In this document: one piece after another, positions 6,552 through 57,949 of the stretch
How the letters are laid out: each line of letters opens with the position of its first letter
Numbering within the stretch: the first letter of the stretch is position 1
Assembly: GCA_902787755.1 (NCBI GenBank)
Contig: CADAHL010000005.1
Location: forward strand, 19,524-83,523
Reading direction: 5' to 3'
Length of the DNA: 64,000 nucleotides
Source: Oscillospiraceae bacterium
Lineage (GTDB): Bacteria; Bacillota; Clostridia; Oscillospirales; Oscillospiraceae
Notes under the pieces: model-generated
Database searches by the model: none
Seen by the model: only the letters and a program-made list of their open reading frames with translations
What the model was told of the DNA's origin: nothing
Made by a program: the position numbers and the translations under genes

Positions 6552-6584
6552 GTCCTTTCAAAGTATTTGCACCAATGGTATAAT

Positions 6585-6618
6585 GGGGATGCGGCTGATG
6601 CCGCATCCCCAGTTTTTC
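6585..6618 (+). terminator. Intra-operon terminator-like hairpin between mop and the Fe-S gene
   Basis: GGGGATGCGGC-TGAT-GCCGCATCCCC forms an 11 bp perfect stem followed by AGTTTTTC. It lies 34 nt after the mop stop. Confidence 0.6.
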
Positions 6619-6635
6619 AAACGGGAGGGAGGAAC

Positions 6636-8930: not shown

Positions 8931-8933
8931 ACC

Positions 8934-9155
8934 ATGGCTGTGGAGAAAAACTACTATACCATCGATCCCCAGGGCAAGCTCAGCTGCCTGAAATGCGGGG
9001 TGCCGCTGGTAAAGGGCAAGGCCAAATTCATGTACCTGGACAACGGTTTTCCCGTGGAACTGCCGGTCTGCCCGGTCTGCGGCTTTGTCTATGTGCCGGA
9101 GGAGCTGGCCCTTGGGAAAGTGGCGTCCGTGGAGCGGGCGCTGGAGGACAAGTGA
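8934..9155 (+). CDS. Small 4-Cys zinc-ribbon/rubredoxin-like protein (73 aa)
   Basis: Motifs CLKCG...CPVCG. It starts 3 nt after the previous stop. From memory it corresponds to the DVU_1557 family redox protein. Confidence 0.75.
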   Translation: MAVEKNYYTIDPQGKLSCLKCGVPLVKGKAKFMYLDNGFPVELPVCPVCGFVYVPEELALGKVASVERALEDK

Positions 9156-9664
9156 ACGGCCATCCCGGCGGCGAGGAGAACACCCGCCGCATGCTCGCCC
9201 TGGCCGAATTGCCCGAGGGGGCGCGGCTCCTGGATCTGGGCGCCGGGGCGGGGGAGACGCTGGCCCTTCTGCGGGGGCTGGGCTTCCGGGCGGAGGGTCT
9301 GGACCTCAGCCCTCGGTCCCCGCTGGTGGACAAGGGGGATCTGCTGCATACGCCCTACCCCGACGGCAGCTTTGACGGAGTGCTCAGTCAGTGCGCCTTC
9401 TTTGCCTCGGGCGACGTGCCCGGCGCGCTGCGGGAGGCCCACCGGCTGCTCCGGCCCGGCGGGAAGCTGCTGCTGTCGGATGTGTTTTTTCAGGCTCCGG
9501 AGGCGCTGCTGAACGGGGCCGGCTTCTCGCTTCTCCGGGCCGAGAATATGACGGCGGCCTGGCGGGAGTATATTCTGGAAGCGCTGTGGCGGGAGGATGT
9601 GCCGTGCTGCACCATCCCCCGGGGCAGATGCGGCTATTGGCTGCTCATCGGGGAAAGGAGATAG
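9152..9664 (+). CDS. Class I SAM-dependent methyltransferase
   Basis: ORF 8993..9664 trimmed to GTG 9152, which overlaps the upstream stop as GTGA. ATG 9191 is an alternative start. Motif I is LLDLGAGAGE, followed by RPGGKLLLSD. Confidence 0.8.
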   Translation: MNGHPGGEENTRRMLALAELPEGARLLDLGAGAGETLALLRGLGFRAEGLDLSPRSPLVDKGDLLHTPYPDGSFDGVLSQCAFFASGDVPGALREAHRLLRPGGKLLLSDVFFQAPEALLNGAGFSLLRAENMTAAWREYILEALWREDVPCCTIPRGRCGYWLLIGERR

Positions 9665-9666
9665 AA

Positions 9667-10092
9667 ATGGATCTGTTTGACAGGATCATGGAGCTGAGCC
9701 GCTATGGGTATTTCTGCGGCCAGATCCTGGCGATCCTCATGCTGGAGACCGTGGGGGAGGAGAATCCGGGCCTGGTGAAGGCCATGGGAGGACTGAACGG
9801 CGGCGTGGGCTTTTCCCAGAACTGCTGCGGCTGCATGACCGGCGGAGCCTGCGTGATCTCATATTTTACCGGCAAGGGCGAGGACACGGGGATGGACTCC
9901 CCGGAGCACAAGCCCGCCCTGGGCGAGTTCACCCGCTGGTTTGAGGATGAGATCACCGCCGATTACGGCGGCATCGACTGCCGGGATATCACCCGGGGCA
10001 ATCCGGCCAGGCGGGTGGAGTGCTGCCCCCAGATCATTGCCGCCACCTATGAAAAATGCATGGAAATTCTGACGGAGCGTGAACTGCTGTGA
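9667..10092 (+). CDS. C_GCAxxG_C_C family putative redox-active protein
   Basis: ORF 9391..10092 trimmed to ATG 9667 (GGAAAGGAG upstream). Motifs seen: YFCGQILA, NCCGCMTGGACV and ECCPQII. Confidence 0.8.
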   Translation: MDLFDRIMELSRYGYFCGQILAILMLETVGEENPGLVKAMGGLNGGVGFSQNCCGCMTGGACVISYFTGKGEDTGMDSPEHKPALGEFTRWFEDEITADYGGIDCRDITRGNPARRVECCPQIIAATYEKCMEILTERELL

Positions 10093-11411
10093 TCATTGGG
10101 AGAACAGAGAGTGTCTGCCCGGTCTGCCTGCGGGTGCTGCCCGCGGAGATCTGCCCGGGAACAGACGGCGTCTATATGGAAAAGTCCTGCCCGGAGCACG
10201 GGGACTTCCGTTCCCTGATCTGGGAGGGAGATCTGCGCTCCTATCTCCGGTGGGCCACGAAGAACAGCGCGGCGGAAGCGCCGAAGGACCCCAAGCCCTG
10301 CAGCCGGGGCTGCCCCTATGACTGTGGCCTGTGCGGGGAGCACCGGACAAAAGGCTGCTGCGTGCTGCTGGAGCTGACAAAACGCTGCAATCTGCGCTGC
10401 CCGGTGTGTTTTGCTTCGGCGGGCGAGACCGGGGACGGCGATCCGAGCCTGGGGCAGATCGCGGCCCAGTACCAATACCTGATGGACCACGGCGGCCCCT
10501 TCAACATCCAGCTGTCCGGCGGCGAACCCACCGTCCGGGACGATCTGCCGGAGATCATCGCGCTGGGGCGGGAGAAGGGCTTCTCCTTCTTTCAGCTGAA
10601 CACCAACGGCCTGCGTCTGGCCTCCGAGCCCGGCTATGCCCGCAGCCTGAAGGAGGCGGGGCTGAGTACGGTGTTTCTCCAGTTTGATGCCGTCAGCGAC
10701 CCGGTGTACGAGATCCTTCGGGGCCGGCGGCTGCTGGCGGAGAAGGAGCGGGCCATCGAGGCCTGCGCCGAGGCCGGACTGGGGATCGTGCTGGTGCCGG
10801 TGATCGCGGCCGGGGTCAATGAGGACCAGGTGGGGCCGATCCTGCGTTACGCGCTGGAGAGGATGCCGGCGGTGCGGGGCGTGCATTTTCAACCGCTGAG
10901 CTATTTCGGCCGCTGCGGCCTGGCTCGGCCCGACAGGCCCGTGACCATCCCCAAAATGCTCCGCCTGATCGAGGAGCAGACCGGAGGCCGGATGTGCGCC
11001 TCCGATTTTGGCGGCGGCGGGGCGGAGAATCCCTATTGCTCCTTCCATGCTAGTTACCTGAAAAAGACCGACGGCAGCCTGAAAGCGCTCAAGCGCAAGT
11101 CCGACAGCGGCTGCTGCTGTGTCAGCTCCGACGACTCCCGCCAGGCCGTCGCCAACCAATGGTCCGGTGAAGCGGAGGAATTTGCCGGTGACGGGGAATT
11201 TCTGGAGACCTCCTCCCTGGACGCCTTTCTGGAGCAGGCGAGGAAGAATACCTTTGCCGTATCCGGCATGGTGTTTCAGGACGCCTGGAACCTGGATCTG
11301 AAGCGCCTGCGGCGCTGCTATATCTGCGAGATGGACCCGGAGCACGGCATGGTGCCGTTCTGCGCCTACAACTTGACCGATACGGAAGGGAGAGCGCTGT
11401 ACCGAAGATGA
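10089..11411 (+). CDS. Radical SAM enzyme with an N-terminal zinc ribbon
   Basis: GTG start overlaps the upstream stop (GTGA). The zinc ribbon is CPVC..CPEHGDF. The CxxxCxxC motif is CNLRCPVC, followed by SGGEPT. A Cys-rich patch SGCCCVSS is present. I saw no SPASM-type C-terminal cluster motif. Confidence 0.9.
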   Translation: MIIGRTESVCPVCLRVLPAEICPGTDGVYMEKSCPEHGDFRSLIWEGDLRSYLRWATKNSAAEAPKDPKPCSRGCPYDCGLCGEHRTKGCCVLLELTKRCNLRCPVCFASAGETGDGDPSLGQIAAQYQYLMDHGGPFNIQLSGGEPTVRDDLPEIIALGREKGFSFFQLNTNGLRLASEPGYARSLKEAGLSTVFLQFDAVSDPVYEILRGRRLLAEKERAIEACAEAGLGIVLVPVIAAGVNEDQVGPILRYALERMPAVRGVHFQPLSYFGRCGLARPDRPVTIPKMLRLIEEQTGGRMCASDFGGGGAENPYCSFHASYLKKTDGSLKALKRKSDSGCCCVSSDDSRQAVANQWSGEAEEFAGDGEFLETSSLDAFLEQARKNTFAVSGMVFQDAWNLDLKRLRRCYICEMDPEHGMVPFCAYNLTDTEGRALYRR

Positions 11412-12628
11412 AGATCTCACGCCTGGATGCGCTCATCATGGAGCAGGAGCAGGTCAATACCCTGGACCGGGAAACGATAGAGGCGATTCAGCTGGCAAAG
11501 CTGAACCGCCTTCTTGCGCGGGAAAGGGAGCGCGGCGGCTTTTACCGCGGTCTGCCGGAACGGCTGGATTCCCTGGCGGAGCTGGGGAGCCTGCCCTTCA
11601 CCACAGAGGCGGATCTGGCCCGGTCAGCTCCCGGGATGCTGCTGATCTCCCAGAGCCGGATCCGGCGGATCATTTCCGAGACCACCTCCGGCACCACCGG
11701 CACTGCCAAGCGGGTGTTCTATACCGACGGGGATCTGGAAAACACCGTCCGGCTCTATATGGCCGGGCTTGGGGAACTGATCTTCCCCGGCAGCAGAACC
11801 ATGATCTGCTTTCCCTTTTCCGGCCCCCATGGCCTGGGCGAGCTGATCGCGGAGGCCGTGACACGGCTGGGCGCCCGGCCGCTGAAGCTGGGCCCATCCC
11901 TGAGCTATGGGGAATATGCCGCCATCCTGGAGCGGGAGCAGCCGGATACCTTTGTGGGGATGCCGGGGCAGCTGCTGTCTCTGCTTCGGGCCTGCGGCAG
12001 GGGAAGCCTCCGCCGGGCGCTGGTCAGCGGCGACGCCTGTCCGGACAGCGTGATATCGGGATGCGAGCGAATCCTGGGCTCCCGGCTGTTCCCCCACTAC
12101 GGTTCCCGGGAGATGGGCATGGCCGGGGCGGTCACCTGCCCGGCCCATGAGGGGATGCATCTCAGAGAAAACCACGTGATCCCGGAGATTGTGGACGAGA
12201 CAGGCCAGGTCCTGCCCCGGGGAGAGTGGGGCGAGCTGGTCATCACCACCGTGGGCATGGAGGCCCTGCCGCTGATCCGCTACCGCACCGGTGACGTGAC
12301 CCGGATCCTGCCGGAGCCCTGCCCCTGCGGGAGTGCGACGATCCGGCTGGACCGTCTCCGCCGCCGGGCGGGAAATCGGATCGAGGAGCTGGACGAAGCC
12401 CTGTTTGCCCTGCCGGAGCTGGTGGACTATACCGCTCGGCTGGAGGGCGGTGTGCTGCGGATCCGGGGCCTGACGGCGGGCCCATACCCGACCGAGAAGA
12501 TCCAAAACCGGGCGGAGGGGATATTCCCCGGCGTTGGGATCCGGGTCGAGCTCTCCCCTGTTCGACCGGAGGACCGGCCGCTGAATCCCGGGAAGAGGAT
12601 CCTGGGCGGGATGGAGCAGTTTTCCTGA
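11408..12628 (+). CDS. PaaK / coenzyme F390 synthetase-like adenylate-forming ligase
   Basis: ATGA overlap with the radical SAM gene. The AMP-binding motif is SETTSGTTGTAKRV, followed by YGSREMG and YRTGD. Confidence 0.9.
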   Translation: MKISRLDALIMEQEQVNTLDRETIEAIQLAKLNRLLARERERGGFYRGLPERLDSLAELGSLPFTTEADLARSAPGMLLISQSRIRRIISETTSGTTGTAKRVFYTDGDLENTVRLYMAGLGELIFPGSRTMICFPFSGPHGLGELIAEAVTRLGARPLKLGPSLSYGEYAAILEREQPDTFVGMPGQLLSLLRACGRGSLRRALVSGDACPDSVISGCERILGSRLFPHYGSREMGMAGAVTCPAHEGMHLRENHVIPEIVDETGQVLPRGEWGELVITTVGMEALPLIRYRTGDVTRILPEPCPCGSATIRLDRLRRRAGNRIEELDEALFALPELVDYTARLEGGVLRIRGLTAGPYPTEKIQNRAEGIFPGVGIRVELSPVRPEDRPLNPGKRILGGMEQFS

Positions 12629-27108: not shown

Positions 27109-28956
27109 ATGGGCGCGAAACGTGTCATTACGATCATCTTGGGGCTGGTGTATACGGTTGCCCTGTTCCTGTTCGGCTTTTCGCCGCTGAGCGCGGGACG
27201 CGGAGGGGACGCCGGGACCAACGCCGGGACGGAGCGCCGTCCGGCGCTCGCTCTGGTTACGCCTACGCCCGAGCCGGAGATCCCGGACGTGAACTTTGCC
27301 GCCGGAGCGGTGCCCGCGGATACCGAAGAGCTGACCCTGGTTCTGGAGCAGGGGGAGACCCGGCTGCTGAACCGGCTGAAGGAGCTCAAGAGCGCGGATC
27401 TGAGCGGCAGCACCTGCTATGAGGAGATCGTGAGCTGGGCCCAGGCGCACCCGGAGGTGGCGGTACGCTACACGGTGCAGCTGCCCAACGGCGCTACCCT
27501 TCCCAACGACGCCCAGGAGGCGGATCTGACCGGGCTGGCGGCCGAGGACGGAGAGAAGGCGGCGGAGCTGCTGGCCTTCCTGCCCGGACTGAAGAAGGTG
27601 GAGCTGGGCGATCCCGCCATCAGCGCGGCCCAGATCCTGGCCCTGCGGGAGAGCTACCCCGAGGTGGAGTTCCACTATGACGTGATGCTTCTGGGCCAGA
27701 AGCTGGATCCCCAGGTGGAGGAGCTGGACCTGACGGAGCTGAGCCCGGAGGAGGCCGACAAGGCGGTGCTGGCCCTGGCGGGGCTGGAAAATCTGCAGAC
27801 CATCTATCTGTCTCCCGATTCCGGACTGAGCTGGGATCAGATCACCGCCATCGGTGACGCCTGCCCCGACACGGTGCTGAATATGCCGGTGACCATGTTC
27901 GGCAAGAGCTTCAACCTGGCCGATCCCTGGCTGGACTTCAACCACATTTACATGGACGACAACGGCGAGGCCATCCGGGGCCTGATGCCCTATATGCGCA
28001 ACTGCACGGTCCTGGATATGGACTCCTGCGGTGTCAGCAATGAGGCCATGGCCCAGATCCGGGATGAAAATCCGGGGATGGACGTGGTCTGGCGCGTGAA
28101 CTTCGGCGACAACTACTCCGTGCGCACCAATGTGACCAAGATCCTGGCCTCCAAGCCCTCCAAGGGCGGCGCCCTGTATGACAGCGCGGCCGAACAGCTC
28201 AAGTACTGCACCAACGTGCGCTATCTGGACGTGGGCCACAACGGCAACCTCTCCGACTTCAGCTTCGTCAGCTATATGCCCAACCTGGAGATCGCTGTGG
28301 TCTCCATGACCGGCATCTACGATCTGTCTCCCTTTGCCAACTGCCCGAACCTGCTGTACCTGGAGGCGGGCAACACGCCCATCTACGATCTGAGCCCTCT
28401 GGCCAACTGCACGAAGCTGGCCCACCTGAACGTTGGCACCTGCGTGGGCGTCAGCGACATCAGCCCCCTGTACGAGCTGGATATGAAGCGGCTCTGGCTG
28501 GGCGTGGTGGACCCGGTGCCTCAGGACCAGATCGACTATATGCGCGAGCTTCATCCCAGCTGTGAGGTCAACACCACCGTGCCCTCCGGTCTGGAGCGCA
28601 ACGCCGACGGCGGCGCCGCCAACGAGGGCTACGTCATGGGCGACTGGAAGAGCTACCAGAACTACCTGACCGCCGACTGGGAGTCCTACGCCCGGACCGG
28701 TTCCTTCCCGGCCCAGCGTCCCATCGGCTACTTCAAGGTGATCTACAAGTGCTTTGACTACAACCTGGCCGACGGCGCCTACGCCTTCTCCTGGAACGAT
28801 CCCAAGTACAGCGCCCACAGCCCGGACGTGTTCCCGGTGAACACCGCCATCCACAATACCGAGCTTCTGAGTCAGGACTGGGTCAACCCCGAGTCCGTGA
28901 TCCCCGAGCTGCTCTCCGATCCCCCCGGAGAGGTGCTGTGGACCATCGAATACTGA
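27109..28956 (+). CDS. Membrane-anchored leucine-rich-repeat (LRR) surface protein
   Basis: 615 aa with an N-terminal TM segment. LRR-like units recur (LxxLxLxxN.I.DLSPL), e.g. CPNLLYLEAGNTPIYDLSPLANCTKLAHLNVG. It is a paralog of the next gene. Confidence 0.8.
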   Translation: MGAKRVITIILGLVYTVALFLFGFSPLSAGRGGDAGTNAGTERRPALALVTPTPEPEIPDVNFAAGAVPADTEELTLVLEQGETRLLNRLKELKSADLSGSTCYEEIVSWAQAHPEVAVRYTVQLPNGATLPNDAQEADLTGLAAEDGEKAAELLAFLPGLKKVELGDPAISAAQILALRESYPEVEFHYDVMLLGQKLDPQVEELDLTELSPEEADKAVLALAGLENLQTIYLSPDSGLSWDQITAIGDACPDTVLNMPVTMFGKSFNLADPWLDFNHIYMDDNGEAIRGLMPYMRNCTVLDMDSCGVSNEAMAQIRDENPGMDVVWRVNFGDNYSVRTNVTKILASKPSKGGALYDSAAEQLKYCTNVRYLDVGHNGNLSDFSFVSYMPNLEIAVVSMTGIYDLSPFANCPNLLYLEAGNTPIYDLSPLANCTKLAHLNVGTCVGVSDISPLYELDMKRLWLGVVDPVPQDQIDYMRELHPSCEVNTTVPSGLERNADGGAANEGYVMGDWKSYQNYLTADWESYARTGSFPAQRPIGYFKVIYKCFDYNLADGAYAFSWNDPKYSAHSPDVFPVNTAIHNTELLSQDWVNPESVIPELLSDPPGEVLWTIEY

Positions 28957-29037: not shown

Positions 29038-30795
29038 ATGCGCATGAAGATCCTGAAACTGCTGCCGACTCTGCTGCTGGCTCTGCTGCTGGCCGGCTGC
29101 GGCATGAGCGGCCTGGAGGGCGAAGCGGCGCCGGAGCCTACCCCGGAGCCCAAGGAGTTCAGCGGTGTGATCACCGCTCAGGGCCTGAAGAAGCTGGAGG
29201 AGATGCCGGGCCTGCGCACGGCGGATCTGAGCGGCAGCACCTGTTATGCCGAGATGATGGCCTGGGCCGCGGAGCATCCGGAGGTCAAGGTCATCTATAC
29301 CGTTCCCCTGCCCGACGGGACCGCGGTGCCCAACGATACCGAGGGCCTGGATCTGAGCGGCTACAGCGCCGCTCAGATGAAGGATACCTGGCAGCTGCTG
29401 GGCTATCTGCCCCGGCTGCGGCTGCTGCGCCTGGGGGAGGAACCCCTGGAGCCCGAGACCCTGGCCCTGCTGCGCGAAAGCCTGCCGGAGGCGGAACTTC
29501 AGGGCAGCGTCCGCTTTGCCGATCAGAAGCTCACCCTGGGGCGGTCGGGCCTGAGCCTGCCCAATCTGGACGGGGAGCAGCTGCGGGAACTGACAGAGCT
29601 TCTGCCGCTGATGGACGGCCTGGAGGAAGTGAACCTGGGCCGGGAGGCGGCGGAGGGCGATACGGACTGGGAGGCCATGGGGGAGCTTTGCTCCGCGCTG
29701 CCGGACCTGAAGATCCATTATGTCTTCAGCGTGTACGGCAAGGAGTGCAGCCTGGAGGACACGGATCTGGACCTGAGCTTTATCCGGATCTATGACGAGG
29801 GCCAGGCCCTGCGGCCGATCCTGCCCTGCATGAGAGACTTGAAGACCCTGGATATGGAGCACTGCGAGGTCAGCGACGACGCTATGGGCGCTCTGCGGGA
29901 GGACTTCCCGGAGATCCAGATCGACTGGCGCATCTATTTCGGCACCTGCTACTCGGTGCGAACCGACGCCATCAAGATCCTGGCCTCCAAGCCCACCGTG
30001 GGCGGGGACCTGATGCGGGAGGATCTGGAGGTACTCAAGTACTGCACCAAGCTCAAATACCTGGATCTGGGCCACAATGAGATGCTGACGGACATCTCCT
30101 TCATCTCCTATATGCCCGAGCTGGAGGTGGCCATTCTGGCTATGGACAAGTGGACCGACGGCTCCCCGCTGGCCGACTGCCCCAATCTGGAGTTTCTGGA
30201 GGTCCAGACCACCAATCTGAAGGATCTGACGCCTCTGTCCGGCCTGACCAAGCTCCGGCACCTGAATATCTGCCGGCTGGAGGAGCTGACGGATCTGAGC
30301 CCCATCTACGATCTGGATCTGGAGCGGCTGTGGATCGGCTGCGTCACGCCCATCCCGCCGGAGCAGGTGGAGCACTATCAGCGCTTGCACCCCAACTGCA
30401 AGATCAATACCGAGGCCTTCGACCCCCACGACGGCTGGCGCTGGCTGGGCTATGACGACGATCTCAACCCCATCCGGGATCCCCGCTACGATCTGCTGGT
30501 GCAGCAGTTCGGCTACGACAAGGGCGACTATTCCTTTGTCTGGTTTACCGATCCCAGCTACGTCTCCGACGTGCTGTGGGAGTACGGCGGCGATTTTGAG
30601 TCCACCACGGACGACGACGGCGGCAGCTCCGGCGGCGGAGGCTACATAGACTACGGCGGCTCCGGCAGCAGCGAGGGCGGCTCCGGCGGCGGTGAAACCG
30701 GCGGAGGCGGCGGCTCGGGTGACAGCGGCGGGGGAGACTCCGGCGGCGGAGCTCCGGACCCCGGAGACGGCGGCGTGGTCGTCATCGAACCCTGA
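29038..30795 (+). CDS. LRR lipoprotein paralog with a Gly/Ser-rich C-terminal tail
   Basis: The lipobox is LLLAGC. It shares the segment ADLSGSTCY.E...WA..HPEV.V.YTV.LP.G with the previous gene. LRR units such as CPNLEFLEVQTTNLKDLTPLSGLTKLRHLNI are present. The tail reads GGSSGGGGYIDYGGSGSSEGGSGGGETGGGGGSGDSGGG. Confidence 0.8.
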   Translation: MRMKILKLLPTLLLALLLAGCGMSGLEGEAAPEPTPEPKEFSGVITAQGLKKLEEMPGLRTADLSGSTCYAEMMAWAAEHPEVKVIYTVPLPDGTAVPNDTEGLDLSGYSAAQMKDTWQLLGYLPRLRLLRLGEEPLEPETLALLRESLPEAELQGSVRFADQKLTLGRSGLSLPNLDGEQLRELTELLPLMDGLEEVNLGREAAEGDTDWEAMGELCSALPDLKIHYVFSVYGKECSLEDTDLDLSFIRIYDEGQALRPILPCMRDLKTLDMEHCEVSDDAMGALREDFPEIQIDWRIYFGTCYSVRTDAIKILASKPTVGGDLMREDLEVLKYCTKLKYLDLGHNEMLTDISFISYMPELEVAILAMDKWTDGSPLADCPNLEFLEVQTTNLKDLTPLSGLTKLRHLNICRLEELTDLSPIYDLDLERLWIGCVTPIPPEQVEHYQRLHPNCKINTEAFDPHDGWRWLGYDDDLNPIRDPRYDLLVQQFGYDKGDYSFVWFTDPSYVSDVLWEYGGDFESTTDDDGGSSGGGGYIDYGGSGSSEGGSGGGETGGGGGSGDSGGGDSGGGAPDPGDGGVVVIEP

Positions 30796-38596: not shown

Positions 38597-39706
38597 ATGG
38601 AAAAACGAGAGTTTGAAACCCATCCGCCCCGGGAGGAAGTTTCCTTCCCGGCCGCCAGGTCGGAATGGAACCAGCCCGATCCGGAGCGGGAGTTCTCGCC
38701 GCCCCGGCCGGAGGCGGAGTTCAGCCCGGTGGGCTCTCAGCTGGAGCTGCCCCGGCGGACCCGGAGGAAGCGGAAGATCCGCACGGCGGCCTTCGCGGTC
38801 ATGCTGGTCATCCTGCTGCTGATGCTCCGGCCGCCCCAGCTGCCCGGTCTGCCGCAGATTCGGCCGGCCCCGGCGGAGGAGCCGCCGGCGTCGGAGCCCC
38901 TGCCCACCCCGGAGCCGACGAGTACACCCGCGCCCACACCGACGCCCGCGCCGACCCCCGCGCCCACGCCGGAGCCGGAGCCCGGCTATCAGGTGCTGTA
39001 TTTCCAGTTCTCCCACGCCCATTACGGCAGACTCCGCTTTACCCGGCCGGAGGCCTTCCGCTCGGTGCATCTGGAGATCTGGGAGCCCTATCTGGACCTG
39101 ACCGTGGCCAGCTTCGACCTGGTGCCGGAGGACTATGCCGACGGGGAGTACCTGCTGCCCATGCAGAGCACCGGCGACGTGTTCGAGGCCCACATGGATG
39201 AGTATCTGGCCCGGGATGTTTGGCCGGAGGCTCTGATGCTCCGGGGAACGGTGAGCTATGAGAAGGACGGGGAGCTGGTGGAGGAGAGCTTTACCCAGGA
39301 GCCGGACTACGAGCAGGGCTGGGGCCTGACCTGGTGGCCCGAGGACGAGCCGGCCTCGGATTGGACCTTCCCCGGCTGCTTCGTGTTCGCCACCTACGAG
39401 TCTGAGGTCCCGCTGGAGATCGTGGTCAACGATCCGGACGGGGTGAAGGCAGGGGTCCTGGGCGTCAGCATCCGGATCGACGGCCGGGAGATCCCGGCGG
39501 AGGCCTACCGCTTCGAGCCCTATGAGGAGACCTGGACCGCTATGGACCGGGACGGAAACCAGCGGGAAGTGGTCTTCTACTATGCCCGGGCGGTGGTGGA
39601 AAAGCCCGACTGGGCGCCGGAGCACAGCGTGGCCCATGCCGTGGTGACCCAGCTGCTGGAGGGCAGCGGGGAGATCTGGGTGTCCGAGCAGGACGTGGAA
39701 TACTGA
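38597..39706 (+). CDS. Hypothetical single-pass membrane protein with a Pro/Thr-rich linker and an extracellular domain of roughly 230 aa and unknown family
   Basis: 369 aa. The TM segment is IRTAAFAVMLVILLLMLRP and the linker is PTPEPTSTPAPTPTPAPTPAPTPEPEP. GC3 bias is coding-like. I recognise no motif. Confidence 0.7.
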   Translation: MEKREFETHPPREEVSFPAARSEWNQPDPEREFSPPRPEAEFSPVGSQLELPRRTRRKRKIRTAAFAVMLVILLLMLRPPQLPGLPQIRPAPAEEPPASEPLPTPEPTSTPAPTPTPAPTPAPTPEPEPGYQVLYFQFSHAHYGRLRFTRPEAFRSVHLEIWEPYLDLTVASFDLVPEDYADGEYLLPMQSTGDVFEAHMDEYLARDVWPEALMLRGTVSYEKDGELVEESFTQEPDYEQGWGLTWWPEDEPASDWTFPGCFVFATYESEVPLEIVVNDPDGVKAGVLGVSIRIDGREIPAEAYRFEPYEETWTAMDRDGNQREVVFYYARAVVEKPDWAPEHSVAHAVVTQLLEGSGEIWVSEQDVEY

Positions 39707-39784: not shown

Positions 39785-41062
39785 TTATGTTACCATCAGA
39801 CCCAAAGTGAGGATCCCCTCGTTCCGGCGGTAGATGGCGTCGAAGTCGGTCAGCGGCAGGGGATTGACGCCCCGGCCCACCTCGACGGTATAGCCCGGGC
39901 GGTCGTAGTCCTGGAGGAACCAGTCCTTGTACCCGGCGAAGCCCGAGGCGTAGGGGGTGTCCTCCACCGCGTAGCCCGAGGCTTCCCCGAAAAGGCGGGC
40001 GATGGCCTGGGCGTTCTCCGGCTGATAGTCCAGATATTTCCAATAGATCACCTCGCCCTGGCTGTGATAGGCTAAGACGAGGGCGGGGTCGAAGCGGCGG
40101 GTCCAGTCGTACAGCGCCCGGCTCTCCGGGGCCGTCAGCGGGGCGGCGCCCACATAGTCCGCCGGCGCCGGGGAGACGATCCCCTGGGCGAATTTGTTCG
40201 CCCGGGCCTGCTCCCAGCCCGCGGGGTACTGGAGATTCAGGTCTACGCCCCGAATGTTTGCCTTCCAGCCGGAAGGGAAGGGGTAGCGCGGATAGTTGAG
40301 GGCCAGAGCCCTTGCCTGGTCGTAGGCCTCGCCCGAGGAGAGCTCTCCGGTGACCAGATCCATCCCGTCCGGATTCAGGCAGGGGATCAGGCTGAGCCTG
40401 GCATAGTCCAGCAGCTCTGCCGCCGGGGTCCCGAAGAGGCTGCCGCCGTCGGCGCAGGCGATGCACAGCTGCTCCAGAAAGCGGAGGAGCAGCGGCGTGG
40501 TGATCCACTCGTTGGCGTGATGGGTCCCGTTATAGAGCACCCGATTCTCTCCGGACCCGATCTCCAGGCTCCAAAGGGGCTTTCCCAGCGCGCTTTTGCC
40601 GATGCTGCCGCTGCGCAGAAAGGGGTAGCGGGCGCTGAGCCCCCGGACCACCAGGGCCAGCAGGGACGAGCACCAGCGGATCCCGGTGGGCACGACCTCG
40701 AAGGGCAGGGGCACGGTGATCCGGGCTCCCACAGGCAGATTCTCCGGAGTCAGGGTGGGATTGGCCAGGATCAGGGCCTCGGGTCTGGCGCCATAGAGAC
40801 GGGCGATGGACCAGAAGCTCTCGCCCCGGCGGACCGTATGGCTGAGAGCGCCGGTGGTCCAGGGCAGCAGGGCCTGCCGGGTGACGGGCCCCGCCACCGC
40901 GTCCTGCCGCAGCCCGTTTTCTCCCTGAAAGCGGCGGAGCGCGCTGCGGGTCCGGACGCCGAATACGCCGTCGGTCTCCAGGGGGCCGAAGCCCGCCCGG
41001 TTCAGGGCCAGCTGCAGCAGCTCCACCGCCGGCCCGGTGCTTCCGAAACTGAGAGTTCGCAT
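39785..41062 (-). CDS. Peptidoglycan-binding domain + LysM + M14 zinc carboxypeptidase (gamma-D-glutamyl-meso-diaminopimelate peptidase-like)
   Basis: ORF trimmed to ATG 41062 (GAAGGAGGAA upstream). PG_binding_1-like segment: GSTGPAVELLQLALNRAGF..DGVFG.RT. LysM: HTVRRGESFWSIARLYG. M14 motif: GTHHANEWIT. Confidence 0.85.
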   Translation of the reverse strand: MRTLSFGSTGPAVELLQLALNRAGFGPLETDGVFGVRTRSALRRFQGENGLRQDAVAGPVTRQALLPWTTGALSHTVRRGESFWSIARLYGARPEALILANPTLTPENLPVGARITVPLPFEVVPTGIRWCSSLLALVVRGLSARYPFLRSGSIGKSALGKPLWSLEIGSGENRVLYNGTHHANEWITTPLLLRFLEQLCIACADGGSLFGTPAAELLDYARLSLIPCLNPDGMDLVTGELSSGEAYDQARALALNYPRYPFPSGWKANIRGVDLNLQYPAGWEQARANKFAQGIVSPAPADYVGAAPLTAPESRALYDWTRRFDPALVLAYHSQGEVIYWKYLDYQPENAQAIARLFGEASGYAVEDTPYASGFAGYKDWFLQDYDRPGYTVEVGRGVNPLPLTDFDAIYRRNEGILTLGLMVT

Positions 41063-41164
41063 GATCGTTCCTCCTTCGACTGCTTTTCCCAAGAGTATGC
41101 TCTCAGACGCCGGAAAATGACGCGCCGGGAACTTTAGTCCCCCAAAAACGTCGAAAGAGCAGCT

Positions 41165-41200
41165 GCACACTGAGCACTACGCACTAAGCACTGTATAAAT
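41165..41200 (+). promoter_or_regulatory. Four 7-nt-phased direct repeats (nnGCACT) abutting a TATAAAT -10-like box upstream of the motA-like gene
   Basis: GCACACT GAGCACT ACGCACT AAGCACT G TATAAAT. GCACT occurs at 41174, 41181 and 41188, exactly 7 nt apart. Confidence 0.4.
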
Positions 41201-41219
41201 AGAAAGCGAGGGATCTACT

Positions 41220-42131
41220 ATGAGCAATTTCCGCAATATCCCCCCGGCGGGGCTGATCGTGATCGCCGTGATCGGCGCGCTGTTCGTGCTGGCGGTGATC
41301 CTGCTGCTCTACGTCCACATGCGCTACCGCCTGCTGAGCCTGGGCGCCAGCGGACAGGGCGAAGAGGGCCGGGGCTTCCGGGGCGCGCTGCTGAAGGAAT
41401 ACGTGGCCGCCTACAAAAAGTACGGCCGGGACGTGAACACCCCGGCGATCATCACCGACGTGATCAGCGCCAGACTGTCCGGCCTTCTGCTGTGTGAGCG
41501 GTTTCTGAACAACGCCGTCTCCCTGTTTGTGACTCTGGGCCTGTTCGGCACCTTCCTGGGTCTGAGCCTTTCGGTGGCTTCTCTGACAGAGCTGATCGGC
41601 CTGAGCAACACCGAGGAGTGGCTCAGCGTCCTGGACAGCGTGGGCGGCGGCCTGATGAGCGCCCTTTCCGGTATGGGCGTGGCCTTCTACACCTCTCTGG
41701 TGGGCGCGGGCTGCTCCATCCTGCTGACGGTGCTGCGCACGATCTTCAGCCCTCAGGCCCAGCGGGAGAAGCTGGAGACCCGGCTGGAGCTGTGGCTGGA
41801 CATGGAGGTGGCCCCGGGTCTGGCCACCGACGCGGCCAAGGACGACGCCCAGCTGGTGCGGCAGATGATCGAGGCTATGAAGACCGCCTCCGGCGAGGTG
41901 AGCCGGGCGCTGAACGGCGCCTGCGCCTCCTTCGGCAGGGCTACCGAGGCCAACCGGGCCTCCCTGCAGACCTTTGACGGCACGGTGGAGAAGTTTAACG
42001 GCGGCGTCCACGACTTCGGCGAGGTGGATTACAACCTCCGCGGCACGGTGGAGCGCCTGGATCTGGCGGTGCGGGATCTGTCCGCGGCCATGCGGGAGAT
42101 CAACCGCCGCATGGAAGGAGCGGGAAAATGA
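41220..42131 (+). CDS. MotA/TolQ/ExbB-family proton-channel protein with a C-terminal helical tail of roughly 110 aa
   Basis: 3-TM profile. The signature LGLFGTFLGL lies in TM2 and AFYTSLVGAG in TM3. The tail is rich in heptad-like A/E/R/L residues. Confidence 0.8.
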   Translation: MSNFRNIPPAGLIVIAVIGALFVLAVILLLYVHMRYRLLSLGASGQGEEGRGFRGALLKEYVAAYKKYGRDVNTPAIITDVISARLSGLLLCERFLNNAVSLFVTLGLFGTFLGLSLSVASLTELIGLSNTEEWLSVLDSVGGGLMSALSGMGVAFYTSLVGAGCSILLTVLRTIFSPQAQREKLETRLELWLDMEVAPGLATDAAKDDAQLVRQMIEAMKTASGEVSRALNGACASFGRATEANRASLQTFDGTVEKFNGGVHDFGEVDYNLRGTVERLDLAVRDLSAAMREINRRMEGAGK

Positions 42132-43150
42132 AGCGGCGCTTCGTCGGGCGCTCCGACGCCATGACCCGCAGCCAGGAGGGGGAGCAGGGCTTCTGGCCCA
42201 GCTACGCGGACATGATGTCCGCCGTGGCTCTGATCCTGTTCTTCCTGATGCTGCTCAGCTACATTCAGAACCTGATCACCGGCAACAATCTCCAGAGCAC
42301 CCGGGAGCTGCTGGAGGATACCCGGGTGCAGCTCAGCGATACCCAGACCGAACTGGACGACACCCAGGCGGTCCTGTCCCTGACCCTGCAGCAGGCCCGG
42401 GAGGCCCAGGCGGATCTGGATAAGATCACCATCGATCTGGACCAGGCCCGGCTCACCCTGACCCAGCAGCAGCAGGAGCTGTCGGAGACGAAGAAGGATC
42501 TGGCTGCCCAGAACCGGCTGCTGGCGGATCAGAAGGCCCTGATCGGCAAGCAGGAGGAGTACATGAAGGCCGCCAGTCAGGAGCTGCTGGCCATGCGCAG
42601 CCAGATGCAGACCATCGCCGTGCTGCGGCTTTCGATCCTGGAACAGATCCGGGACAGCATGGCCCGGGTGATGGGGGACGCATCCAAGGTCTCCATCGGC
42701 CCCAACGGCAACATTATCCTCAGCGAGGGCGTGCTGTTCGACGTGGGTTCCTCGGATATCAAGCCCGAGGCCGCCCCGGCTCTGAATCAGCTGATCCAGG
42801 TCTTCTCCGCCTTCCTGGCCGACGAGGAAAATTCCAAATACGTGGACAGCATCGTCATCTCCGGCCACACCGATTCCACCGGCACCAACGAGGAGAACCA
42901 GGTGCTGTCCACCGACCGGGCCAACGCGGTCCTGGGCTATCTGATGGCCAACGACGGCGGGCGTCTGGACGCTTATGCCAACTATTTCTGCGCCGCCGGC
43001 TATGGCGAGACCCGCCCCGTGGCGGACAACGGCACCACCCAGGGCCGGGCGGCCAACCGGCGCATCGAGATCTCCATCATCCTCCGGGACGATACGGTCA
43101 TGGAGATCGTGGAGAGCTATCTGGATCTGGAGCTGCCCGAGGAGCCCTGA
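42128..43150 (+). CDS. MotB-like / OmpA-family peptidoglycan-anchoring protein with a coiled coil of roughly 140 aa
   Basis: ATGA overlap with the upstream gene. The MotB-type plug/TM with conserved Asp is FWPSYADMMSAVALILFF. A Q/L/D-rich coiled coil follows. The OmpA-like C-terminus is ISGHTDSTGTNEENQVLSTDRANAV..GYGETRPVADNGTTQGRAANRRIEI. Confidence 0.85.
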   Translation: MKRRFVGRSDAMTRSQEGEQGFWPSYADMMSAVALILFFLMLLSYIQNLITGNNLQSTRELLEDTRVQLSDTQTELDDTQAVLSLTLQQAREAQADLDKITIDLDQARLTLTQQQQELSETKKDLAAQNRLLADQKALIGKQEEYMKAASQELLAMRSQMQTIAVLRLSILEQIRDSMARVMGDASKVSIGPNGNIILSEGVLFDVGSSDIKPEAAPALNQLIQVFSAFLADEENSKYVDSIVISGHTDSTGTNEENQVLSTDRANAVLGYLMANDGGRLDAYANYFCAAGYGETRPVADNGTTQGRAANRRIEISIILRDDTVMEIVESYLDLELPEEP

Positions 43151-55780: not shown

Positions 55781-57022
55781 GATCTCATCCCAGTAGCGTT
55801 TGGCGGCCTGCTCGGTCTTGTTGTCGCCGTACTCGTAGTAATGGGCGCCCTTCAGCTCGTCGGGCAGATACTGCTGCCTCACCCAGCGGTGGGGGAAGTC
55901 GTGAGGATAGAGATAGCCCTGCTCCCGTTCGAAGCCGGTTCCGTCAGCGTGGACGTTCTGCAGCTCTCTCGGCACGCTGCCGGTGCGCCCGGCGCGTACG
56001 TCCGCCAGGGCCGCGTCGATGGCCATGCAGGCGGTGTTGGACTTGGGGGCGGTGGCCAGAACAAGGCAGGCCTCCGCCAGAGGCAGCCGGGCCTCCGGCA
56101 GACCCAGCTGCAGGGCCGAGTCCACGCAAGCCTTCACGATGGGCACCGCCTGGGGCCAGGCCAGGCCGATATCCTCGCTGGCCGAGCAGAGGATCCGGCG
56201 ACAGGCGCCGATCAGGTCTCCCACCTCCAGCAGCCGGGCCAGATAGTGCATGGCCGCGTCCGGGTCCGAGCCCCGAAGGGACTTCATCAGGGCCGAGAGA
56301 ATGTCAAAGTGGTCGTCTCCATCCCGATCGTAGCGCATGGCGCTGCGCTGGGAGATGGCGATGGCATCCTCCAGGCGGATGAGGCCGTCCTCCATGGCGG
56401 CGGAAAAGAGAAGCTCCACAGAGTTGACGGCCTTGCGCACATCGCCTCCGCAGGCCGCGGCGATCCGGGCCGCCACACCCTCCTCCAGACGCAGGGGGGT
56501 GGCGCGGCGCTCGTTCTCAATGCGAACCGCCCGCTCCACCGCCTTCTCCACGTCTCGGGCAGCCACGGGCTTGAACTCAAAGACCGTAGAGCGGCTGAGA
56601 ATGGCGTTGAAGACGCAGAAGTAGGGATTCTCGGTGGTGGAGGCGATCAGAGTGATGCGCCCGTCCTCGATGAACTCCAGCAGGGACTGCTGCTGTTTTT
56701 TGTTGAAATACTGGATCTCGTCCAGATACAGCAGAACGCCTCCCGGGGTGAGGAAGGTATCCAGCTCGTCGATGATGCGCTTGATGTCCGCGATGCCGGC
56801 GGTGGTGGCGTTGAGCTTGCGCAGGCTGCGGTTGGTGCGCTGGGCGATGATCCGGGCCACGGTGGTCTTCCCGGTGCCGGAGGGGCCGTAGAAGATCATA
56901 TTGGGGATCTGTCCGCTCTCCACGATGCGTCGGAGCATGCCGCCCTTTCCCAGAATGTGCTGCTGTCCCACCACATCGTCCAGGGAATCCGGGCGGATCT
57001 GGTCGGCAAGGGGCTGATACAT
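55772..57022 (-). CDS. rarA: Replication-associated recombination protein A (AAA+ ATPase RarA/MgsA)
   Basis: LDDVVGQQHILG, Walker A GPSGTGKTT, LYLDEIQYFNK, and the MgsA C-terminal domain. Confidence 0.95.
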   Translation of the reverse strand: MYQPLADQIRPDSLDDVVGQQHILGKGGMLRRIVESGQIPNMIFYGPSGTGKTTVARIIAQRTNRSLRKLNATTAGIADIKRIIDELDTFLTPGGVLLYLDEIQYFNKKQQQSLLEFIEDGRITLIASTTENPYFCVFNAILSRSTVFEFKPVAARDVEKAVERAVRIENERRATPLRLEEGVAARIAAACGGDVRKAVNSVELLFSAAMEDGLIRLEDAIAISQRSAMRYDRDGDDHFDILSALMKSLRGSDPDAAMHYLARLLEVGDLIGACRRILCSASEDIGLAWPQAVPIVKACVDSALQLGLPEARLPLAEACLVLATAPKSNTACMAIDAALADVRAGRTGSVPRELQNVHADGTGFEREQGYLYPHDFPHRWVRQQYLPDELKGAHYYEYGDNKTEQAAKRYWDEIKK

Positions 57023-57229
57023 AAAAACTGCCTCCCGGTGTGTGTTTTAGACCATTATACCACTCCCGGGGGCCTTTGTACAACCGGATTTCGGCCCGAC
57101 GAAGAGGCATTGTCAAATATTGCCGAATTCTTAATTTTTGTGAAATCCGACCCTCCCGCCTGTTCTTTGCGGGAAATCTGTGATATAGTAGGCCCATCCA
57201 ATCCTACGGACAGAGAAAGGAGGCCTCCC

Positions 57230-57949
57230 ATGGACGGGCTGAGCGGAACACACACATCTCCCGCCGACAGACGGCGACCCGGACCGATCGTAAAAGCGGC
57301 GGTTCTGGTTTTGGCGCTGGCGCTGTTGGTGTTTGTCGGGATCCGGCTCTACGCCTGGTCCGAGCAGGCCCGGGAGGCCCGGGTAGTGGTGCTGGTCAAC
57401 TCCTGGAACGACGTGGATCATTCCGGTTTTACCCCCAAGCTCCGGGAACTCGGGGACGGCTTCCGGGTGGACGCCGCCTGCCGAAAGCCGCTGAACGAGC
57501 TGCTGGAGGCCTGCCGGGAGGCGGGCTTCGATCCGGTGCTCACGGCGGCCTATCGCAGCCGGGAGGAGCAGCAGGCGCTGTTTGAACAGACCGTGGAGGG
57601 CCTGCTCGGGCAGTACGGCGGGGACCGTCAGGCCGCTGAGGAGGCGGCGGAGAGGGCGGTGGCCCGACCCGGGGCCAGCGAGCATGAGCTGGGTCTGGCC
57701 GTGGATCTGGAGAGCCGGGACGGCCGCAGCGAGCCGATGTACCAGTGGCTCCAGGAAAACGCCTGGCGCTACGGCTTCATCCTTCGTTACCCCCGGGGCG
57801 GGGAGGAGATCACCGGTGAGGACTACACCCCCGGCCACTTCCGATACGTGGGGATGTCCGCCGCCGGTCAGATCTACGCCCTGCAGATCACCCTGGAGGA
57901 ATATATGGGCATGTTCTTCTCCGAGAGCGCCCAGATCATCTTTGAATAA
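57230..57949 (+). CDS. VanY/M15B-family D-alanyl-D-alanine carboxypeptidase, membrane-anchored
   Basis: C-terminal part of ORF 55841..57949. ATG 57230 has GAAAGGAGG upstream. A TM segment is followed by SAYRSREEQ-like AAYRSREEQQALF, SEHELGLAVDL and PGHFRYVG. Confidence 0.88.
   Translation: MDGLSGTHTSPADRRRPGPIVKAAVLVLALALLVFVGIRLYAWSEQAREARVVVLVNSWNDVDHSGFTPKLRELGDGFRVDAACRKPLNELLEACREAGFDPVLTAAYRSREEQQALFEQTVEGLLGQYGGDRQAAEEAAERAVARPGASEHELGLAVDLESRDGRSEPMYQWLQENAWRYGFILRYPRGGEEITGEDYTPGHFRYVGMSAAGQIYALQITLEEYMGMFFSESAQIIFE

Follow-up and report, generated by a model that had tools for sequence, protein, structure and literature searches.

The A–B gene pair and its products

At positions 41220 to 43150 of a 64,000-nucleotide stretch of DNA from an Oscillospiraceae bacterium of gut or rumen (contig CADAHL010000005.1 of assembly GCA_902787755.1; the whole stretch is referred to here as the window) lie two adjacent genes, A and B, whose products may well form an ion-driven motor anchored in the cell wall. 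The stop codon of A and the start codon of B share the four bases at 42128-42131, within AAAATGAAG, and on the reading of this ATGA overlap B is translationally coupled to A. Both genes, with the coordinates, lengths and overlap assigned to them in an earlier note made from the sequence alone, are borne out by the open reading frames (ORFs), and all of the motifs quoted in that note (LGLFGTFLG; FWPSYADMMSAV, which contains Asp28; GHTDSTGT; NQVLSTDRANAV; GYGETRP; NRRIEI) are present in the translations. The GC content at third codon positions (GC3) is 0.89 for A and 0.90 for B, like that of the surrounding genes, which indicates that both are native to this ~63% GC genome. The features of the pair are listed below, with residue numbers referring to the respective proteins, transmembrane abbreviated to TM and AlphaFold 2 to AF2.

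41220-42131, plus strand: gene A, a 303-amino-acid (aa) ORF, predicted three-TM ZorA-like channel or rotor subunit
41514..41744, plus strand: TM2, outer loop and TM3 of A, residues 99-175 (alignment, HMMER, hydropathy, charge)
41745..42128, plus strand: cytoplasmic helical tail of A, residues 176-303 (AF2, hydrophobic periodicity, alignment)
42012..42059, plus strand: tail motif DFGEVDYNLRGTVERL of A, residues 265-280, consensus DFxEFNxxLRxNIxRM
42128-43150, plus strand: gene B, a 340-aa ORF, predicted ZorB/MotB-like stator subunit
42191..42277, plus strand: FWPSxxDxxS motif in the single TM helix of B, residues 22-50 (alignment, hydropathy, charge)
42281..42682, plus strand: extracytoplasmic coiled-coil stalk of B, residues 52-185 (AF2, heptad analysis)
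42689..43120, plus strand: OmpA-like peptidoglycan-binding domain of B, residues 188-331 (Pfam, PDB sequence, Foldseek)

Hydropathy, charge distribution and the AF2 model give protein A a short N-terminus on the outside and three TM helices (TM1 at ~9-32, TM2 at ~99-122 and TM3 at ~148-175), joined by a basic cytoplasmic loop with 10 Lys/Arg residues (33-98) and by a short, acidic outer loop between TM2 and TM3. The model is all-helical with a mean predicted local distance difference test (pLDDT) score of 83.9, reaching at least 90 in the membrane core, and its cytoplasmic loop is made up of two helices (49-68 and 74-85) without any strand. Within residues 99-175 the invariant positions are G107, L108, G110, T111, F112, G114 and L115, followed by M152, A155, F156, S159 and G162.

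The functional meaning of some of these positions can be read from ZorAB, the motor of Zorya defence, in which ZorB Asp26 is the essential ion-binding residue and ZorA Thr147 in TM2 and Ser184 in TM3 form the ion filter (Hu et al., PMC11946911). Counted along the HMMER alignments with 8qyk and 8vvn, Thr111 of A, in the LGLxGTF motif, aligns with Thr147, and Ser159, in AFxTS, with Ser184; both residues, together with Asp28 of B, are invariant in family alignments whose members share only ~25% overall identity. ExbB and TolQ likewise have a conserved TM2 Thr within an LGxxGT motif.

At the level of fold A is ExbB/TolQ-like, and by sequence it is closest to ZorA. The Pfam MotA_ExbB model matches it weakly (20.4 bits against a gathering cut-off of 22.9), and in NCBIfam, whose library also contains MotA, TolQ and ExbB models, only four ZorA models are matched at E<=1, with scores far below their cut-offs (25.3 against 100 bits). 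At the thresholds used, PADLOC also matches A to ZorA models only, and the ZorA1 model PDLC00597 is matched by 33 of 33 diverse family members; the similarity to ZorA models spans the TM2-TM3 region only. A family profile run against PDB sequences (E<=10) matched, among natural membrane proteins, ZorA chains only (8vvn, 8qyk, 8qyd, 8qyy and 8qyh), with no MotA, PomA, ExbB, TolQ or GldL chain returned, and Foldseek with the A model ranked ZorA 8vvn first, then TolQ and ExbB, with neither MotA nor PomA in its top 50. The ExbB/TolQ-like three-TM layout proposed in the earlier note therefore stands as regards helix number and fold, on the evidence of hydropathy, AF2 and Foldseek, while the sequence is instead ZorA-like; and where Zorya had been considered only as a neighbour that was missing, its effectors are indeed absent nearby but A itself resembles ZorA.

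TM3 leads into the cytoplasmic tail, which had been correctly described as helical but is 128 residues long rather than ~110. AF2 models it as helices at 178-202 and 209-301, its hydrophobic periodicity is 3.5 residues, and E190 near its base is invariant; the length of A as a whole is 300-321 aa across 120 close homologues. Further along, F252, F259, D265, F266, F269, N270, L273, N276 and R279 are invariant or nearly so. A loose pattern recovered the tail motif from 75 of 85 close A proteins and from 69 of 78 distant ones, and it was also the stretch that the search tool chose as its query pattern. That it persists at ~25% overall identity suggests a surface that interacts specifically, rather than a generic coiled coil. 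There is also a weak match between the end of the tail and the C-terminus of the ZorA1 model PDLC00598 (positions 571-661 of 663, E 6.5e-4), seen in five of 33 members and suggestive only.

Protein B begins with a basic, cytoplasmic segment (residues 1-21) and has one TM helix (~24-50) containing Asp28, with the remainder of the protein outside. F22, W23, S25, D28 and S31 are invariant, Asp28 being unchanged in both B alignments. The N-terminal and TM region matches the ZorB chain 8qyd_F in sequence, and in PADLOC B matches the ZorB1 model PDLC00609 over residues 9-330 (E 7e-37). The Pfam MotB_plug model (PF13677) scores 13.9 bits against a cut-off of 24 (E 0.04), and the residues matched, 20-44, are those of the TM region.

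Outside the membrane there follows a coiled-coil stalk of ~134 residues, rich in L, Q, A, T and D, where ~140 residues rich in Q, L, D and T had been proposed. It comprises ~19 heptads in a single unbroken register, with one position occupied by L/I/V/M/F in 89% of heptads against 28% overall and periodicity peaks at 7.0 and 3.5, and AF2 models residues 27-182 as one continuous helix. At ~0.15 nm per residue the stalk would measure ~20 nm if extended. Its membrane-proximal part consists of TQxxLxx heptads whose number varies by species (B lengths are 326-393 aa), the differences in stalk length between species being partly whole heptads, and its distal part (QEEYMKA...ILEQIRD) is strongly conserved, including in distant relatives. 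The OmpA-like head is recognised by Pfam at residues 203-311 (E 1.5e-17), and its Foldseek matches are OmpA-like domains, ZorB, MotS and MotB. D249 and R264 of this head are invariant, and their equivalents in OmpA-like domains contact the diaminopimelate of peptidoglycan, as in structures of the Acinetobacter baumannii OmpA-like domain, which are among the fold matches. Invariance of Asp28, Pfam and Foldseek thus support the MotB-type TM helix with its Asp and the closing OmpA-type domain that had been assigned to B from the sequence.

This architecture bears directly on two familiar identities. Some B homologues carry the database names 'flagellar motor protein MotB' or 'chemotaxis protein MotB', and B aligns over its length with the PomB and MotB family, as would be expected if the pair were a flagellar stator of the MotAB type. 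A, however, has three TM helices and not four, lacks a large cytoplasmic domain between TM2 and TM3, finds no MotA or PomA in any of the NCBIfam, PDB and Foldseek searches above and falls below the Pfam gathering cut-off, while the 134-aa coiled coil of B is absent from stators; nor is there a flagellar gene near the pair in ~170 loci or among the window genes that were scanned (ten flanking genes and 30 others of the 64 kb). Architecture excludes a flagellar stator, an identity to which we attach next to no credence. An energiser of the ExbBD/TolQR type, which would power transport or an envelope process through a TonB/TolA-like partner, fits the three-TM topology of A, a fold almost as close to TolQ and ExbB as to ZorA, and the nucleoside ABC transporter encoded downstream in the window. 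Yet the head of B is OmpA-like and not an ExbD/TolR domain, no TolQ or ExbB was matched by sequence in NCBIfam or PDB, neither a TonB/TolA-like nor a transporter gene recurs next to the pair, and those hosts that could be named are Clostridia, a group not known to have an outer membrane. We exclude this type because of the B subunit and the missing partner, and rate it as very improbable.

Conservation and genomic setting

Homologues number in the thousands, and those that are labelled come from metagenome-assembled genomes (MAGs) of Oscillospiraceae or Ruminococcaceae. At E<=0.001 the A homologues fall into 556 clusters at 50% identity, some of which may be genuine ZorA proteins. When one genome per species was scanned, at least 324 carriers came up; the best 80 were without exception uncultured Oscillospiraceae or Candidatus Limivicinus of rumen and gut (58-72% identity), and over more than 80 species-level MAGs identity is 58-80%. 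Public names for the family are inconsistent and include flagellar motor protein MotB, chemotaxis protein MotB, methyl-accepting chemotaxis protein and RNase H-fold protein (members P0203, P0166, P0186, P0187, P0393, P0399, P0414 and P0421), none of them supported by domain searches; other labels are OmpA family protein, chemotaxis receptor and hypothetical. The name methyl-accepting chemotaxis protein was rejected as annotation noise from the helical tail, Pfam finding no domain of that kind in A.

The two genes travel together. In 84 of 86 Oscillospiraceae loci B comes straight after A, both exceptions lying at contig ends, and most of these 84 keep the 4-base overlap, a recurrence beyond chance. 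A second set consists of 82 distant loci, a branch at 25-45% identity from low-GC genomes whose genes have strong ribosome-binding sites (RBSs); here B, of 300-327 aa, adjoins A in 71 loci and the other 11 are cut by contig ends. The pair is conserved as a unit in its relatives, and the earlier note had considered that the opposite would count against its proposal; the other objection foreseen there, that the genes are simply motAB, is ruled out by their architecture. Exact look-ups put names to some of the distant hosts, all of them Clostridia, among them Acidaminobacter sp. JC074 and Candidatus Petromonas.

A search for a third gene that recurs beside the pair was negative for the 86 Oscillospiraceae loci, where the best candidate occurred in 13 without a fixed position, and for the 82 distant loci save in one sub-branch. 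In that sub-branch A is ~490 aa long, its helical tail extending further beyond the conserved motif, B is ~320 aa, and a gene for a TPR-like protein of 320-336 aa lies directly downstream. All 17 complete loci of this variant have this gene, no other locus does, and its product may be a partner of the A tail there.

Loci of the 490-aa A variant: L087, L122, L125, L127, L128, L130, L132, L141, L143, L145, L146, L150-L152, L160, L161, L165

A nuclease domain on the variant, as implied by the JGI name 'RNase H-fold protein', was considered and dropped, since Pfam returned only coiled-coil-like noise.

The sole long-tailed relative that was looked at, at L088:2794-8353, has the opposite pattern of lengths from the window pair, with a 686-aa A and a stalk-less B of 242 aa. 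It is flanked by an NYN-domain gene upstream and by LrgA/LrgB (murein-hydrolase regulator-like) genes downstream. In another case, at L089:736-4985, genes for recycling of N-acetylmuramic acid (SIS/MurQ-like, phosphotransferase system EIIBC, MupG and an RpiR-type regulator) stand directly upstream of a distant A-B pair. The cell-wall genes at these two loci are single cases that did not recur on clustering, and they are not used as evidence here.

A long rigid coiled coil with a peptidoglycan-binding head, whose length shifts partly by whole heptads from species to species and for which no output partner is known, would also suit something other than a motor, namely a static membrane-to-wall tether, spacer or ruler, or a gated ion channel built on a stator scaffold. 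Asp28, Thr111, Ser159 and the tail motif are nevertheless strictly invariant across members at ~25% identity, which points to ion-coupled activity and a cytoplasmic interaction, both needless for a passive tether, and we consider a non-motor role distinctly unlikely.

The pair is almost wholly confined to chromosomes. Among 2.9 million viral contigs of IMG/VR one 41-residue fragment was the only match, the A of the window matches nothing in 50,697 phage and 72,556 plasmid records, and one distant family member gives a single weak, partial match on an Arcobacter plasmid; a mobile or viral origin was rejected on these results. In the window, the flanks of the pair are a PG_binding_1/LysM/Peptidase_M14 gene on one side and a Bmp/nucleoside ABC transporter downstream, so that Pfam agrees with the neighbours first described, a divergent M14-type peptidase gene and a nucleoside ABC transporter. 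The features between the peptidase gene and gene A are as follows.

39785-41170, minus strand: PG_binding_1/LysM/M14 peptidase gene as its longest ORF
41062..41219: divergent intergenic region of 157 bp between the start of the M14 peptidase gene (minus strand) and gene A
41192-41200: extended -10-like element TGTATAAAT upstream of gene A, read from the sequence
41208-41213: RBS GAGGGA upstream of gene A, read from the sequence

The start of the M14 gene is most likely 41062 (GGAGG lies upstream, and the resulting 425-aa protein is called likewise in three relatives), and the longest-ORF start at 41170 is probably wrong. A consensus scan found no full sigma-70 promoter match before A and no terminator after B, so that the promoter before A is a suggestion at sequence level only.

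The window order hrcA, MscS, a gene of unknown function, the divergent M14 gene, A, B and Bmp is kept in relatives at 99, 92 and 80% A identity, which places the pair at a stable site among core genes; the term 'core gene' is applied to it provisionally, from context and conservation and not from presence/absence statistics. The link to the M14 peptidase suggested in the earlier note is not supported beyond the genus, as the gene accompanies the pair only in the closest relatives (80-99% A identity) and is absent from the ~85 other Oscillospiraceae loci. The association is a genus-level coincidence of position, and with synteny limited in this way the peptidase was rejected as a functional partner in general. 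Among the window genes that were scanned for domains there is none that is flagellar, Ton, Tol, gliding, Zorya-effector-like, defence or mobile, in keeping with the absence of flagellar, Ton, Tol, gliding and ZorC/D/E genes first reported next to the pair, and PADLOC on the ten flanking genes gave only generic ABC ATPase similarity.

In the foremost alternative the pair is a minimal Zorya-like anti-phage system. The wall-anchored complex would sense phage damage to the envelope and act either through an effector encoded elsewhere or on its own, for instance by an unplugged proton leak that collapses the membrane potential in abortive infection. In its favour, ZorA and ZorB are the only sequence relatives of known function, those residues of the ion path that Zorya cannot defend without are conserved, the end of the A tail weakly matches that of ZorA1 PDLC00598, and the long-tailed relative L088 adjoins an NYN-domain gene. 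Set against this are a tail of only 128 aa, when every truncation of the Zorya tail abolished defence (PMC11946911), an A model without the beta-hairpin that is a Zorya-type feature (PMC12505986), NCBIfam ZorA scores far below the cut-off, and the lack of an adjacent ZorC/D/E/F/G or other defence gene. The stable core-gene site, the high conservation and the absence or near-absence from phages, plasmids and viral contigs are, in addition, atypical of defence islands. We judge a defence system of this kind to be unlikely, although it deserves to be kept in view.

Several other genes of the window may be recorded here. A 369-aa protein with an N-terminal TM segment and a Pro/Thr-rich linker, encoded at 38597-39706 (plus strand), has no Pfam or PADLOC match; its gene adjoins the MscS gene in close relatives, and the protein is 572 aa long in one of them, L172. 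Tandem genes for proteins of ~600 aa at 27109-28956 and 29038-30795 (plus strand), in which only leucine-rich repeats (LRR_4) are recognisable, may encode surface proteins. At 55841-57949 (plus strand) a 702-aa protein has a VanY D-Ala-D-Ala carboxypeptidase domain confined to residues 543-671, and the codon-position GC of this gene is unusual for the window (GC1 0.77, GC3 0.71). A cluster at 3792-12628 (plus strand), unrelated to the A-B pair, encodes a molybdopterin xanthine-dehydrogenase-like enzyme, an Fe-S/CCG protein, a methyltransferase, a radical SAM protein with an HMPTM zinc ribbon and an AMP-binding enzyme.

Proposed mechanism and cellular role

On balance we favour the view that the pair is a self-contained ZorAB-type ion-driven motor of the stable Clostridia chromosome, for which a role in the envelope is likely. 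The analysis upholds the earlier reading that the pair belongs to the MotAB/ExbBD/ZorAB superfamily without being flagellar, and that it combines a long stalk outside the membrane with a peptidoglycan-binding head in a host of Gram-positive type, here one of the Clostridia. That note had proposed that such a motor may serve cell-wall remodelling, sporulation or envelope sensing. By homology with MotAB and ZorAB, five A subunits would surround a dimer of B. The B heads would bind the thick wall and so hold B still, and proton flow past Asp28 would turn the A ring together with its bundle of tails. The conserved tail motif would be the output surface, acting on a partner encoded elsewhere, and in one branch of the family that partner may be the co-encoded TPR-like protein. 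In this way the complex would inform the cytoplasm of the wall's state or distance, or couple these to it. A constitutive envelope function is favoured by the strong conservation of the pair, its fixed place on the chromosome and its absence or near-absence from mobile elements; we regard such a function as likely and lean towards it rather than towards phage defence.

Several considerations weigh against this proposal. The nearest characterised relatives of both proteins are defence proteins, and the 5:2 stoichiometry, the rotation and the ion flow are all carried over from homologues. The structural models are of single chains, in which the A tail has a moderate pLDDT of ~55-85 and B a pLDDT of 68 overall, the latter modest because its alignment consisted of close homologues only. 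MotB of Bacillus subtilis reaches the wall without a stalk of this kind, so that wall geometry is no simple explanation of the stalk's length. Finally, at least one distant locus (L086), with 66% GC, is not assigned to a phylum, and the family may not be confined to monoderms.

A more specific form of the proposal, which we put forward tentatively and consider doubtful, is that the pair constitutes a housekeeping, proton-powered rotary device of monoderm (Clostridia-type) bacteria, in which the coiled coil of B would serve as a ruler between membrane and wall and the short, rotating A tail would report wall integrity or distance to a partner in the cytoplasm. The length of such a ruler would be set in part by the gain or loss of whole heptads. 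Cryo-electron microscopy by Matias and Beveridge is reported to have given an inner wall zone of ~20 nm in B. subtilis, which would match the length of the stalk; as MotB of that species does without a stalk, this is offered only as a lead. If the ruler reading is true, the pair would stand beside the Zorya sensor as its counterpart outside defence, or possibly as its forerunner, and would be the first motor of the ZorAB type to serve a core function of the cell.

Ion-driven 5:2 motors power flagella, gliding, Ton/Tol transport and Zorya defence, and each new output found for them has revealed new cell biology. The family described here is large and strongly conserved in abundant, mostly uncultured Clostridia of gut and rumen, and has no assigned function. 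Its architecture is the reverse of that of ZorAB, the tail on the inside being short and the stalk on the outside long, and this makes it a natural experiment on how such motors sense the wall and on what the tip of the ZorA tail does. A housekeeping function would make the pair a new envelope system of Gram-positive-type bacteria, and a function in defence would make it the smallest Zorya-like system known.

Comparison with known motors

A search of the literature, within the library that could be searched, returned nothing relevant on stand-alone or short-tailed ZorAB-like pairs, or on non-flagellar stator pairs in Clostridia, and a 2025 survey of MotAB relatives left Zorya-type proteins out of its phylogeny (PMC12505986). 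Outside the motors, the closest likeness of B is to the NCBIfam PRK09039-type 'peptidoglycan-binding protein' (NF006544 and relatives), in which a coiled coil is likewise followed by an OmpA-like domain. Residues 63-317 of B align with positions 84-340 of 343 in such a model (E 1.6e-13), although the score of 51 bits is far below the cut-off of 362 and that family is itself uncharacterised.

With ExbBD and TolQR the pair shares the three-TM fold class of A, with Foldseek TM-scores of ~0.4-0.6 (normalised to the target chain), and it differs from them in the OmpA-like rather than ExbD/TolR-like B, the lack of a TonB/TolA partner gene nearby and a host without an outer membrane. With MotAB, PomAB and MotPS it shares adjacent A and B genes, an Asp in the B TM helix, an OmpA-like peptidoglycan anchor and, presumably, the mechanism of ion-driven rotation. 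The A subunit of flagellar stators has four TM helices (the square fold) and a torque-generating cytoplasmic domain (PMC12505986), whereas the A described here has three helices, no such domain and no MotA sequence similarity; the long coiled-coil stalk of B and a context free of flagellar genes set the pair further apart.

Comparison with ZorAB can draw on solved structures from E. coli (8QYD) and Shewanella (8VVN) (PMC11946911, PMC11890865). A long ZorA tail is present in all Zorya subtypes (PMC11946911) and measures ~70 nm in E. coli, against 128 aa here. The cytoplasmic domain of ZorA, which has a Ca2+ site, consists of three helices and a beta-hairpin that marks Zorya-type A subunits (PMC12505986, PMC11946911), whereas the loop of A is predicted to contain two helices and no hairpin. 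B, in turn, has its 134-aa stalk, while solved ZorB chains are ~250-280 aa in length, and the distance from membrane to wall in E. coli is ~9 nm (Hu et al., PMC11946911). Unlike Zorya, the pair has no ZorC/D/E/F/G genes beside it in the 86 and 82 loci and sits at a stable site among core genes instead of in a defence island; its hosts are Clostridia, when type I Zorya has been described across Gram-negative phyla. Canonical Zorya therefore fails as a description on the long tail, the beta-hairpin, the effector genes and the behaviour of a defence island. What the pair has in common with ZorAB is a three-TM A with the TM2 Thr and TM3 Ser of the ion filter and a cytoplasmic helical tail, joined to a B with the membrane Asp, an OmpA-like peptidoglycan-binding domain and no clear MotB plug, and for both subunits ZorAB is the best match in sequence and in fold.

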